From Octopus vulgaris (taxonomy: Eukaryota): DNA of 64,000 bases. Under the pieces are notes generated by a model that was given only the letters and a program-made list of their open reading frames with translations, did no database searches and was not told the DNA's origin. Where the stretch lies: the NCBI GenBank assembly GCA_951406725.2, contig OX597842.1:24924001-24988000 (forward strand), written 5' to 3'. A program made the position numbers and the translations under genes. This document shows positions 1,311 through 46,094 of this stretch, in pieces; position 1 is the stretch's first letter, and every line of letters begins with the position of its first letter.

Positions 1311-1499
1311 ATCCCTGATCATAGAGTTTGGGAGGTCTGCACAGTAGGTTTTGTCTGCCTTATATATATATATATATATATATATATATATATAAATAAA
1401 ACAATGTAACTGCACATGTGCTGTTGGCAATTTCTTTTCTTGTTTGGACTTTTTCCTTTCTGATGAAGAGCTATGCTTGAATTGTCAAAAACGCTCTCT

Positions 1500-1953
1500 T
1501 TTTACCAAGTGTCAAGCTATTACATTCCTTGTGCACATCCCCTTGTTGTCTGGAGACCTTGTGCTTGAGGAGACCTATTGAGTCAAGTACATCAACATAA
1601 AAAATCAAATGAAAATTGTAGTTGTGATACCTGTGCCGGTGGCATGTAAAATGCACAATCCAAACATGGCCGATGCCAGCACCACCTTGACTGGCTTCCA
1701 TGCCGGTGGCATGTAAAAAGCACCAACCGATCATGGCCATTGCCAGCCTTGCCTGGCACCTGTACTGGTGGCATGTAAAAAGCACCCACTACACTCACGG
1801 TGTGGTTGGCGTTAGGAAGGGCATCCAGCCGTAGAAACACTGCCAGATCAGACTGGAGCCTGGTGCAGCCTCCTGGCTTCCCAGATCCCAGTCGAACCTT
1901 CCAACCCAATGCTAGCATGGAAAATGGACGTTAAACAATGATGATGATGATGA
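1500..1953 (+). mobile_element. SINE-like repeat family D (gttaggaagggcatccagc core, (GAT)n tail; associated with RTE LINE ends)
   Basis: Same sequence recurs in either orientation at about 5860-6400, 28135-28470, 35086-35316, 47460-47850, 50640-51055, 55753-56383, 56745-56970 and 60676-61310. Confidence 0.75.
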
Positions 1954-2179
1954 TTCGTTTATTTGAATTGACTATACACACGCACATACACAAGGGGCTT
2001 CTTTCAGTTTCTGCCTGCCAAATCCACTCAAAAGGCTTTGGTTGGCCCGAGGCTATAGCGAAAGACACTAGCTTATGGTTCTATGTAATTGGGAAGCAAA
2101 TTTCTTATCACACAGCCATACCTGTACCTATAATCATGTTAATTGTGTTGAATAAATTTTTCTTTCTTTTTTGTTGCAG

Positions 2180-2292
2180 GTCACCCATCTTGTTTGAAAT
2201 TTTCCGCAGATCTGACATCGAAAGTGAAGATGTTACGTTGGCAGTGTATAGAATGTAAAATATGTTCTTTTTGTGGGAAATCAGGAAAAGAG
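2180..2292 (+). CDS. KAT6B: KAT6 exon: end of PHD1 and start of PHD2 ([37 protein letters not shown])
   Basis: ttgcag acceptor, GAG|gttggt donor (phase 0). HPSCLKFS...LRWQCIECK is the double-PHD signature. Confidence 0.95.
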
Positions 2293-2597
2293 GTTGGTTC
2301 CGTTCCATGGCCATTTTTACCTTTCGCTCTTCACTTTAAACGTTCATCAGCTGTACTGTCTGTCCTTGGCCCAGATATCCCCTGCATCTTATATTTTTTA
2401 CTTGCTTCAGTCATCTGACTGCGGTCATGCTGGGGTACCGTTAAGCAAACCACTAAGTTACAGGGATGTAGACAAACCAACACCAGTTGTCAAGCAGTGG
2501 TGTTTCTTTCAGTTTCTGTCTATCAAATCCACTCACAAGGCTTTGGTTGACCTGAGGCTGTTGTAGAAGTCACTTGCCCAAGGTGCCATGCAGTCAA

Positions 2598-41885: not shown

Positions 41886-43121
41886 GTAAGTGTTTTGTTT
41901 CTCCACTCAGGCCCTTGAGTGCGTGTCTGTCCCTGGACAATTTAAGCTTTGGTTGTCTGTGTGTACATGTGACTTAGTGGTTACTGTATTTGACCTACGA
42001 TCGTAAGGTCTTGAGTTCAATATCCAGCTATGTGCTGTGTCCTTGAGCAAGACACTTTATTTCACTTTGCTCCAGTCCATTCAGCTGGCAAAAATGAGTT
42101 GTCCCTGTATTTCAAAGGGGCCAGCCTTGTCACATTGTGTCACACTGAGTCTCCCTGCGAACTACATTAAGGGTTTGCATATCTGTGGAGTACTCAACCA
42201 GTTTCACAAGCAGGCTGTTCCGTTGATTGGATCAAATGGAACCCTTGTTGTCATAACCGATAGAGTAGCAGTGGTAGATTATGATTTACATATGAAGAAG
42301 TGTATATATAAATATATAATATCGGTATGTGAAGTGTGTATATAAATATGTATTGTACCTGTTATTCAAACGGGCCGACTGTGTCACATTCTGTGTCATG
42401 ATAAATCTCTCTGAGAACACCGTTAAGAGTACATGTATCTGTGGAATACTCAGCCACTTGCATGTTAATTTCATGAGCAGGGTGTTGTATTGATTGGATC
42501 ATTTGGAAACCTCGTCATCATTACCGACGGAGCGCCGATTTATGTATGCATGTGTGTGTGTGTGTGTGTGTTTATGTATGTATAAATCTATCAAGCCTAG
42601 CAAAATCACAGTTGTGGCATGACACCGGTATTGGTGTCATGCAAATTGGTACCCATGCCAATGGCATGTAAAAGCACCTTGGTGGCATATAAAAGCACAC
42701 GTTACATTCTCAGAGTGGTTGGCATTAGGAAGCACATCCAGCCGTAGGAAAACCATGTCAAATCAGACAGGAGTCCAACCCATGCCAGCATGAACAACGG
42801 ACATTAAATGATGATGATGATGATGATGTCTACCTAATCCACCTGTAAGATTTCGGTTGACTTGAGGCTATAGCAGAAGACACTTGCCCAATGTGCCACA
42901 CAGTGAGACTGAACTCAGAACCATGTGGTTGGGAAAATTTCTTACTAGAACAGCCACGTCTGCTCTTCATGCGTGTTTGTGATTTTTGTCAGAGCCTGAG
43001 GCCTTTGAACCTGTGTAATATTTTTATTTTAAAATTCTTTTTTTTTCAAAATTTCTTTCTCCCTGTTGCAAAGAAGAGATTGATGATGATGATGTTGTTG
43101 TCGTTGTTGTTGCTCTTTCAG

Positions 43122-43281
43122 AGTGGTTATTTTGGTGAATAGGAAATTGATCAAGGAACACATGCAGAAGCTAAAGCAAAAACTCCAGCAACGAATCGAT
43201 GTTGACCCCGACTACCTTCATTGGACCCCACTTATCTCGACTCAGCTGCTCCTCGAAGAAGAGAAGAGAGCGGAGAAGGAG
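43122..43281 (+). CDS. KAT6B: KAT6 exon: end of MYST domain (VVILVNRKLIKEHMQKLKQKLQQRIDVDPDYLHWTPLISTQLLLEEEKRAEKE)
   Basis: ctttcag acceptor, GAG|gtgggt donor (phase 0). DVDP..L.WTP terminal MYST motif. No further exon was recognised downstream in the window. Confidence 0.93.
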
Positions 43282-43589
43282 GTGGGTATTTCACTTCTCA
43301 AACACGTTATTGTTGTTGTTGTTATCACTGTTGGCAAGGGGTCGGGGGAGGGGATTGTTTTTTCTTTTCCTTTTTTTTGTACACGTTGTGGGTGGCGGGG
43401 TTACTTTACAAGTTGTTCTCTTGTCAAACCCTACCAATGTCAGTTCTCTTTTCCATGCCCTTCTTTGGGGTCAATAAGGTATCAGTTTTCAGTTTGTTAT
43501 AATCAATTATATCTATACACACTCTTTTTCTCAATGTGTACCCTTTTGCTTGTCCATGAAATCATTATTTATCATTATTATTATTATTA

Positions 43590-44930
43590 AGGCGGCGAGC
43601 TGGCAGAATCGTAAGCACGCCGGGCGAAATGCTTAGCGGTATTTCATCTGCTGTTATGTTCTGAGTTCAAATTCCGCCCAGGTTGACTTTGCCTTTCATC
43701 CTTTCGGGGTCGATTAAATAAGCACCAGTTACGCGCTGGGGTCGATGTAATCGACTTAATTCCTTTGTCTGTCCTTGTTTGTCCCCTCTGTGTTTAGCCC
43801 CTTGTGGGCAATAAAGAAATAAGAAACATTAGCATGTTGCTACGTTTTGAGTTCAAATTCCGCTGAGGTCGACTTTGCCTTTCATCCTTTCAGGGTTGAT
43901 TAAATAAGCACCAGTTACGCACTGGGGGTCGATATAATCGACTTAATCTGTTTGTATGTCCTTGTTTGTCCCCTCTGTGTCTAGCTCCTTGTGGGCAGTA
44001 AAGAAATAGGTATTTCACCTGTTGCTACATTCTGAGTTCAAATTCCGCTGAGGTTGACTTGGCCTTTCATCCTTTCAGGGTCAATAAATTAAGTGCCACT
44101 TGCTTGCTGGGGTCAATCTAATCGATTGGCCCTCCTCCCCCAAAATTTTGGACCTTATGCCTAGAGTAAAAAAGATTATTATTGTTATTATTAAGGCTGC
44201 AAGATGACAGAATTGTTAGTACGCTGGTGAAGGCTGCGAGCTAGTAGAACCGTTAGCATGCTGGGCAAAATACTTAGCAGTATTTTGTCTGCCGTTACGT
44301 TCTGAGTTCACATTCCGCCGAGGTTGACTTTGCCTTTCATCCTTTCAGGGTCGATTAAATAAGTACCAGTTACACACTGGGGTCGATGTAATTGACTTAA
44401 TCCGTTTGTCTGTCAAGAAACGTTAGCACGCTGGGTGAAATGCTTAGTGGTATTTTGCCTGTCGCTACGTTCTGAGTTCATATTCCGCTGAGGTCGACTT
44501 GGCCTTCCATCCTTTCGGGGTCAATAAATTAAGTACCAGTTGCTTGCTGGAGGCAATCTAATCGATTGACCCCCTTCCCCAAAATTTCTTGCCTTTTATA
44601 GAGTAGAAAAGGTTATTATTGTCATTATTAAGGCTGCAAGATGGCAGAATCGTTAGTACGCTCCGTAAAATACTTAGTGGAATTTTGTCTGTCCTTACAT
44701 TCTGAGTTCAAATTCTGCAGAGGTCGTCTTTGCCTTTCATCCCTTTGGGGTTGATAATTAAGTACTGGGGTTGATGAAATCGACTATTCCACCCTCGCCA
44801 CCTGAATTTCAGGCCTTGTGCCTAGAGTAGATAGGATTATTATTATTTATTATTATGGTGGCGAGCTGGCAGAATTGTTAGCACGCCGGGTAAAACGTTT
44901 AGTGGTATTTCGTCTGTCTTTACGCTCTTC
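43590..44930 (+). mobile_element. Tandem cluster of about 6-7 family B SINE units
   Basis: Repeated ttctgagttcaaattccgc.gaggt.gactttgcctttcatcc blocks, all in the same orientation. Confidence 0.8.
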
Positions 44931-46094
44931 ACTAGGCACATGCATCACAACCATATGTGCGCAACATGGTGATCTCATATCAAGATAAACAGAACATGAC
45001 CTTGCAGGTGGGGCCCAGTTAGAATTTTCTTCTGGTCAAGTAACCCATCCCACTCAAAAGGTCCCTGAATAAGGGTTGTTTAAGGATGTTGAACGAACCA
45101 CCCATGTTTCCAAAAGTGAATTATCCAAACCTCTAAGAATTCCTTTCAACACATGGCTATGATGCTCCCCCACTACTTCTGCTCTTGATCAGAGATGCAC
45201 ATATCAGCCATTAAAGGACATGGTCAACTGGTTAAGGTCAAGCAAATGACAAGCAAATCTGTAGTATTGAGCAGAATATTTGCTGTAGCCCATCTTTTAT
45301 ACCAAGACAAAACAATGTACATGATAACACTTCCAATCAGTTAAGATCAGAAGCCATGAGAGCCACTGCCTGGTACTGCATCAGGGCATTGATTATTATT
45401 ATTATTATTCGATATTTCTTCTGGCTCTTTGCATCCTGAGTTCAAATCCATCCTATTGCAGTTGACTTTGTCTTTCACCCTTTCAAACTCAATGAAATAA
45501 ATACCAGTTGGTTACTGGGGTTATTGTAATCGACTGAAACCCCCTCCCCTAAAACTTAGAAGCCATGTACCTACAGTAGAAAGGATCCTTATTTGGTGTT
45601 TCTTTTGACCATTTTTGTTCCAAGCTGAAATTCCGTTGGTATTGACTTTGATAAAATAACTACAATTTTATATTTAAGAGATGAGGAATTATTTACATTT
45701 GACGGATATTTGTCCTCATCTTGTTTGTTGTTAACACGTTTCGACTGATATACCCTCCAGCCTTCTTCAGGTGCCTTGGGGAAATTTTGAACCTTGGTTC
45801 TCATTCCTAAGGTATTTTTCAATGTTGTTGTTATTATTATTGAGGTCACTGCCTGGAATTGAACTCAGAACCTTGGGGTTAATAGCCTGTGCTCTTAACC
45901 ACTACACCATATGCCTGTGGGCATATAACAACAGCAACATCGAAAATACCTTAGGAATGAGAACCTTTAGGGGTCCATATGAGATTTTGTTGTTACAAAT
46001 TTATCTTCAATAAATTGATTATACTTTTACAATACACAAAATATTTTAATAACTATTTTTATACAATTCCTTTTAATATCTAATTATAAAAACA

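Follow-up and report, generated by a model that had tools for sequence, protein, structure and literature searches.

A stretch of 64,000 nucleotides of the Octopus vulgaris genome (assembly GCA_951406725.2, contig OX597842.1, positions 24,924,001 to 24,988,000 of the forward strand; the window) carries a MYST acetyltransferase gene on the plus strand and a set of short motifs resembling minimal type I hammerhead ribozymes, six of which lie on the minus strand, antisense to the gene. The host genome is 2.8 Gb in size and rich in microsatellites. A prior description made from the letters of the window alone (the sequence-only reading) had listed eight such motifs in intronic repeats and attributed them to several non-autonomous, ribozyme-bearing retroelement families. 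Seven of the eight were found to be copies of six high-copy repeat families (A-F), the exception being the motif at 30488. Judged from their sequences, the families at 14305, 26970, 33551 and 39924 (B, D, C and E) are truncated ends of Penelope-like elements (PLEs), left in introns as 5′-truncated stubs; those at 1457 (F) and 31183/45733 (A) carry the same type of motif, with no linked open reading frame (ORF) found so far.

Hammerhead motifs and repeat families in the window

Motifs were searched with a type I descriptor that left positions 3 and 8 free and specified a stem I of ≥3 bp, a stem II of ≥4 bp, GAAA and NUH. It passed three of the eight listed motifs, at 14309-14351 (G3:C8), 26970-27033 (C3:G8) and 33551-33587 (U3:A8), and one unlisted match at 50202 that is non-palindromic and non-complementary at 3:8. 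On shuffled versions of the window (30 shuffles) this loose descriptor gave 0.5 matches in all. When a palindromic stem III was added as a filter, three window matches stood against a mean of 0.015 (maximum 1) in 200 dinucleotide shuffles, far above the shuffled background. Stemless CUGANGA...GAAA strings occurred four times per shuffled window. Rfam hammerhead families gave no match at the gathering threshold in nine loci, and the best 150 of 217 Rfam matches to the window included no hammerhead, only microsatellite-driven miRNA matches.

All eight cores lie where the sequence-only reading had placed them, and its view that several repeat families carry Penelope-type minimal hammerhead motifs was borne out by the descriptor and by genome-wide copies, as was its remark that only 31183 and 45733 share flanks. 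Three of the eight (1457, 31183 and 45733) are nevertheless damaged copies, and 30488 was rejected as a hammerhead: it has no usable stem I or II, has G at position 17 and matches only itself in the genome. The copies at 14305, 26970 and 33551 are intact and that at 39924 is atypical; at family level, five of the seven repeat-borne motifs are intact or nearly so. Coordinates are collected in Table 1.

Table 1. Features of the window. Candidate numbers are first-look counts from searches of the octopus genome and are lower bounds (40 matches scored per search).
Feature	Position	Strand	Details
Family F motif, decayed	1457..1489	+	core CUGAUGA 1460-1466; GAAU replaces GAAA; repeat copy ~1418-1549; at least 861 candidates
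Host gene upstream exon, long low-complexity frame	9387-11780	+	poly-Q, -T, -S and -P runs
Second family B fragment, truncated	14117..14130	-	stem I 5′ strand and core only; directly after the (TA)n ending the first copy; absent from the sequence-only reading
Family B repeat copy	~14162-14365	-	ends at (TA)n; probable 3′ pseudo-long terminal repeat (pLTR) of a young reverse transcriptase + GIY-YIG element; at least 770 candidates
Family B motif	14309..14351	-	G3:C8 core GUGAACA (14348-14342); extra G after A9; palindromic stem III; predicted cut after 14312
Family D repeat copy	~26849-27179	-	at least 829 candidates
Family D motif	26970..27033	-	canonical CUGAAGA core; 6-nt palindrome; GUA triplet; predicted cut after 26974
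Non-hammerhead CUGAUGA...GAAA	30491..30524	+	chance
Family A motif	31183..31225	-	CUGAUGA core; 3-nt deletion; repeat copy ~31100-31267; at least 2477 candidates
Host gene frame ending in exon with start of MYST zinc finger	31810..32189	+	PF17772; donor site
Family C repeat copy	33456-33609	-	inverted fragment at 33598-33654; at least 2128 candidates
Family C motif	33551..33587	-	U3:A8 core UUGAAAA (33584-33578); extra G after A9; predicted cut after 33554
Host gene exon, MOZ/SAS acetyltransferase domain	36487..36717	+	PF01853, E 9e-36; AG/GT boundaries
Family E repeat copy	~39846-39993	-	stems I and III intact in motif; at least 1053 candidates
Family E motif	39923..39985	-	CCGAAGA core (U4C); extra U before G12; 6-bp stem I; predicted cut after 39929
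Further MYST gene exon	about 43100	+	
Family A motif	45733..45775	-	CUGAAGA core; 3-nt deletion as at 31183; repeat copy ~45658-45831

The type I order, the core boxes and stems I and II were recovered by the descriptor in families A, B, C, D and F, and in E only when a bulge was allowed. An unpaired base after A9 and a G10.1-C11.1 pair are present in A, B, C, F and a further family, H (below), and absent in D; in family E the additional base lies on the 3′ side instead. Stem III is palindromic in B (ATAT), C (AT), D (CGATCG) and A and F (CG), is of odd length in E and is not palindromic in H.

Both window copies of family A lack the palindrome. A 3-nt deletion in each abolishes stem III together with the NUH cleavage triplet, and the stem III and NUH assigned to them by the sequence-only reading were wrong. 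Because the longer, intact spacing is seen in eight of ten family A copies that were obtained other than by the A query, the window copies are taken as members of a deleted variant. Among the best 30 loci of families B and C, samples biased towards the query, 24/30 (all GUGANCA) and 26/30 (all UUGAAAA), respectively, passed the descriptor; the window copy of B has a weakened stem I. The CCGAAGA core with its extra U is common to the family E copies among the matches listed. Family F is old: GAAA is present in other copies, related copies often read CCGA (U4C), and 8/20 copies passed with stem II relaxed to ≥3 bp, with cores CUGA, CCGA or, once, GUGA. As the family cores confirm, the G3:C8, U3:A8 and U4C families escape CUGANGA-based searches.

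Two side observations concern these families. An abundant family F subfamily has a CCGACGA core (U4C) in most copies (L182, L212, L218, L219, L358, L283), five of them intact in 800 kb of random genomic DNA. A short family C tail fragment without a hammerhead lies at 51860-51898 of the window.

Linkage to Penelope-like elements

In one random stretch of the genome, a family B motif was found 1 kb behind a GIY-YIG frame. A search with that endonuclease (EN) domain gave 150 scored matches, dozens of them at 99% identity. Fifty endonuclease loci were examined (the 30 best matches plus 20 picked by hand, some overlapping), and in 44 the family B motif was present on the same strand, 0.3-1.75 kb downstream; of the six misses, two had no room downstream and four were older copies. 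The frame at locus L280 (1025 codons, truncated 5′ by an inversion) encodes YVDD, DKSG, a C-x3-C-x2-C linker and PF01541 at 25.4 bits (cut-off 22.6); RVT_1 was matched below its cut-off only, in L302. With its near-identical endonuclease copies and open frame of ~1000 codons, family B is young. At one locus a sense motif lies just before the frame and a second 4261 nt later, a pLTR-ORF-pLTR layout. The young B subfamily (B2) and the window type differ in loop II only, and the window-type loop II is likewise ORF-linked (L290, L293).

The family C motif was found downstream in 21/30 endonuclease loci, and the family E motif 186-242 nt behind a Penelope/Poseidon-type reverse transcriptase (RT)-EN frame in 6/6 extended loci, which had been chosen for long or inverted matches. 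The family D motif lies ~2.8 kb 3′ of a Penelope/Poseidon-type endonuclease frame (L236), and the intervening region is common to the loci. The linkage to Penelope RT/GIY-YIG frames that the sequence-only reading had suggested looking for was thus seen for B, C, D and E, whose motifs at 14305, 26970, 33551 and 39924 are not of non-autonomous families as it had proposed; families A and F are still candidates for that description. With six PLE queries, no family A match (0/65) and no family F match (0/75) lay within 3 kb 3′ of an ORF of its own, most of these loci reaching 1.5 kb on each side, and four F matches lay behind family B frames. No remnant of a PLE protein was found in the window itself.

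Sister families and the 3:8 core pair

Family H (P0001) is present in more than 40 near-identical copies, whose frames reach 1316 codons. The B and C proteins are 46% identical, and in a quick tree of 55 rows the two group with H in a single clade (SH-aLRT 100). A CX2-5CxxC linker marks PLEs of Neptune/Nematis type, according to the part of bioRxiv 2021.04.23.441226 covered here, and by their linker families B, C and H can be assigned to the EN+ PLEs of that type. Tandem and inverted copies, a tail and (TA)n targets were seen in this group.

The B, C and H motifs lie at a homologous site and align unaided, with cores GUGAACA, UUGAAAA and CUGAUGC and an extra G after each; G5, A6, G12, A13, A14, A15.1 and U16.1 are invariant. 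In the alignment (7 rows, 3 families), 6/11 pairs changed on both sides, and 3:8 reads GC, UA and CG. The covariation score was 0.554, a value reached in 0/500 shuffles, with slid controls at ≤0.173; the count of doubly changed pairs was equalled in 41/500 shuffles. Because the seven rows are related, this covariation is support and not a probability. In family H loci L376-L380 (for example L378:812-875) stem III is non-palindromic and A9 is replaced by C, and one older copy (L180) keeps A9.

Positions 3 and 8 form a Watson-Crick pair in the active conformation of the hammerhead. For a sample free of selection by query, 80 random 10-kb stretches of the genome (800 kb) were searched with the descriptor free at both positions. 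All 23 palindromic motifs were complementary at 3:8 and none was non-complementary: 18 were C:G (7 from one tandem locus, 5 with U4C), three G:C (2 loci) and two U:A, with no A3:U8 match in the 800 kb that would indicate such a family. Twenty shuffles of the same DNA gave means of 0 (C:G), 0.05 (G:C), 0.15 (U:A), 0.1 (A:U) and 1.0 (non-complementary). A census of all 381 fetched sequences, enriched by targeted searches, gave 166 distinct matches. Complementary 3:8 was in the majority in each of the six clusters of ≥3 (B, 51/52 G:C; C, 46/48 U:A; D, 22/23; F, 22/23; A, 5/7; a tandem family, 3/3), and ten singletons were complementary in eight cases and not in two. The covariation among C:G, G:C and U:A that the sequence-only reading had noticed in eight examples therefore holds in the unbiased sample. 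Since a young family has swapped the pair to G-C and its sisters have U-A and C-G, the fold is likely to be under selection; we infer that selection on master copies would keep the pair and leave its identity free.

A second, separate U3:A8 family was seen at L241:7400-7480 and in L180 (minus strand, behind 8644), with a linker-bearing PLE frame, a UUGAAAA core, a stem I of 6-7 bp, a CCGG palindrome and a very short stem II. Further U3:A8 singletons occur in L043, L228, L239 and L289.

Copy ends and folding

Ends were determined for 55 distinct family B copies near endonuclease matches. Past the predicted cut, 24/55 ended at 84-91 nt and 30/55 at 144-149 nt, and 1/55 ended before it; 48/55 ran into (TA)n. 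Folding used a model without tertiary contacts or Mg2+. A dimer with swapped stem III was compared with two monomers, giving -27.2 versus -12.4 kcal/mol for D and -28.8 versus -17.4 kcal/mol for B2.

Comparison with known systems

Statements taken from PMC4209133, PMC11167929, PMC3088659, PMC6765202, PMC8495972, PMC3884650 and PMC13282606 refer to the parts of these sources covered by the comparison. The octopus motifs resemble the minimal hammerheads of PLEs in their type I order, short stem I, unpaired base after A9, G10.1-C11.1 pair and palindromic 15.2-16.2, and also in their location in pLTRs, their occurrence mostly as solo truncated copies and their inverted pairs (PMC4209133). They differ in that the base after A9, H in the published consensus, is G in families B, C and H, and in that family D has no extra base and an A10.1-U11.1 pair. 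Minimal hammerheads of PLEs as a class are already known, as are U3:A8 cores in PLEs (the Cercyon elements of Schistosoma) and UUU triplets; the 56 representative motifs aligned there read CUGA in 53 cases and UUGA in 3 and include no G3:C8, no U4C and no octopus motif (PMC4209133). These motifs cleave weakly as dimers (PMC4209133), and cleavage of small PLE-associated hammerheads as dimers was also reported by Lunse, Weinberg and Breaker (2017, as cited in PMC6765202).

The closest comparison for family B is PAc, a Poseidon PLE of Anolis carolinensis with a hammerhead in its pLTR and two internal RT starts behind it in vitro (PMC11167929). PAc uses AT-rich targets, and no RNA reads end at its cut site. 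Family B shares the hammerhead in the pLTR, two RT-start-like ends downstream and the absence of ends at the cut. It differs in its tail (~60 nt versus 30-40 bp) and in its Neptune/Nematis-type CX2-5CxxC linker, and G3:C8, its natural state, is in PAc an engineered rescue in which C3G/G8C partly restores cleavage (PMC11167929). In the main-text passages of PMC3088659, figures aside, U3:A8 covariation and a viroid U4C are reported as natural and no G3:C8 is mentioned; in PMC8495972 and PMC3884650 G3:C8 is mentioned only as an engineered variant. Literature searches found no natural G3:C8 hammerhead (Lunse 2017, Przybilski and Hammann 2007, part of the PMC4209133 supplement and the figures of PMC3088659 lay outside the comparison) and no paper on octopus hammerheads (Lunse 2017 again outside it). 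Recently active PLE families have been counted in a 2026 repeat annotation of O. vulgaris, whose main text, in the part covered, does not contain "hammerhead" or "ribozyme" (PMC13282606). A metagenome scan with a family-B-like G3:C8 pattern returned at least 119 loci; one of the 119 listed passed the descriptor, and this non-palindromic match was taken as chance.

Non-LTR retrozymes carry type I hammerheads in non-coding animal repeats and are related to PLE pLTRs, but they form tandem arrays of 150-450 nt (PMC7229834; bioRxiv 10.64898/2026.07.22.740005), whereas the motifs of the window occur as scattered stubs of coding elements. Membership of the window motifs among retrozymes was rejected, as no tandem array was present and B-E were linked to ORFs. 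A retrozyme-like array does occur elsewhere in the genome (L172:3040-4560 and, on the minus strand, 2300-2670), in units of ~359 nt with one CUGACGA hammerhead and a CCGG palindrome each, five units on the plus strand and two on the minus strand.

Interpretation and alternatives

On the sequence evidence, the motifs at 14305, 26970, 33551 and 39924 are likely to be minimal type I hammerheads in the pLTRs of four PLE families, whose parent elements would carry slow, dimer-dependent putative ribozymes. A transcript would start at the upstream pLTR, span the ORF and extend into the pLTR that follows. The endonuclease would nick (TA)n and RT would start internally at either of two points; internal initiation is read in because the family B copy ends match the two internal RT starts of the anole element. 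RT would then copy across the hammerhead on a template that we infer to be uncut or religated, because copies end past the predicted cut and none at it. Where one transcript holds two motifs, these may join by way of their palindromic stem III, with slow cutting after U17, and selection on master copies would retain the 3:8 pair and not its identity. The copies in the window would be passive relics that do not cut the pre-mRNA of the host gene, to which six of them are antisense. An effect on host pre-mRNA was rejected, the copies being antisense or decayed.

Several results weigh against this interpretation. No family B copy (0/55) ends at the predicted cut, which argues that cutting does not define where the element ends. 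The dimer fold was not favoured for C, A or F, and for B2 the form with swapped stem III was not the minimum-energy dimer; the minimum-energy fold of family E pairs its core, and the family B monomer fold adds a G3-U17 pair. The covariation score rests on seven related rows from three families. The very young family H has A9C in 6/7 copies; A9 pairs with G12 in the hammerhead, and A9C is expected to harm catalysis. The deleted variant of family A has spread, 28/30 of the best matches to the window copy lacking the intact form, and it appears in 2/10 unselected copies, one of them the window's own. PAc elements with mutated hammerheads still insert in vitro (PMC11167929).

Some of these results would also be expected if the hammerhead fold were kept for a job other than cutting, such as a landmark for RT-EN, placement of the RT start or translation control of the next frame, with negligible cleavage. 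A9C in H, U4C with a bulge in E, the spread of the deleted A variant, the lack of family B ends at the cut, the unimpaired in vitro insertion of the anole mutants (PMC11167929) and the success of Naiad PLEs without hammerheads all point that way. We nonetheless regard such a role, the main alternative, as unlikely, since G5, A6, G12, A13, A14, A15.1 and U16.1 are invariant in B/C/H while loops and stems turn over, 3:8 belongs to the active conformation, and related PLE motifs do cleave as dimers, if weakly (PMC4209133). Separate non-autonomous ribozyme-bearing elements, SINE- or retrozyme-like (SINE, short interspersed nuclear element), as the sequence-only reading proposed, would fit the absence of an own ORF before the A and F motifs and the ~200-300 nt to which the sequence shared by A copies is confined. 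This explanation is improbable: RT-EN frames accompany B, C, D and E, and tandem arrays are absent among the window motifs; for A and F, most loci extend no more than 1.5 kb per side, and their ORF may not resemble the queries. That the motifs are chance look-alikes, with 3:8 complementarity arising from the choice of examples, holds for 30488, and both the frequency of stemless strings in shuffled windows and the non-complementary match at 50202 that passes the loose descriptor speak for it. Against it are the 23 complementary and 0 non-complementary motifs of the random 800 kb (shuffles, 0.3 and 1.0), the complementary majority in all six clusters, the counts by family (G:C in 78/83 for B, U:A in 50/53 for C) and the B/C/H covariation; these tests refute it for the six families, and its probability is very small indeed.

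What is new, as far as the sequences indicate, is that a young autonomous PLE naturally carries a G3:C8 core and that its sister families are U3:A8 and C3:G8/A9C. A further proposal is more speculative: family B may be the first hammerhead known to have a G3:C8 core by nature, one that is fixed in an element of recent transposition and has kept its cleavage, and the B/C/H clade, with its three Watson-Crick pairs at 3:8 and its A9C change, could be a natural series for selected slow cutting (or cutting and religation to a circle) that lets RT run across. We put this forward as a tentative possibility. No variant letter was seen at the core positions of the family B motif in four contig sets, a weak result as contigs drop rare variants.

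Nearly all canonical PLEs carry a hammerhead, yet in vitro they can do without it. The three sister families of this genome, two of which have many near-identical long frames, differ at 3:8 and A9 and would offer a natural series for comparing cleavage. Descriptors used to search for hammerheads would be widened by a natural G3:C8 core; some 10^4 family B copies (a rough figure from 3 matches in 0.8 Mb, per-family numbers being rough because the random sample was 800 kb) go unseen in CUGANGA and Rfam searches. With the two-peak copy ends, the model of internal initiation, based on one reptile element in vitro, would reach a mollusc element that belongs to a different clade. As for the copies in the window, they are ordinary relics.

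Host gene and other features

We take the host gene to be KAT6/MOZ-like and the exon at 9387-11780 to be KAT6-like. The intronic location proposed for the motifs stood for 33551, which is bracketed by Pfam-verified exons; for 14305-31183 the upstream bracket is the putative exon at 9387-11780, and for 1457 and 45733 an intronic location is a presumption. Every motif whose core and stems are intact lies antisense to the host gene; the one family copy in sense orientation (1457) is decayed. Tandem copies of a SINE-like repeat of 184-230 nt lie at 37416-37787, 43658-44125 and 44416-44923 of the window.

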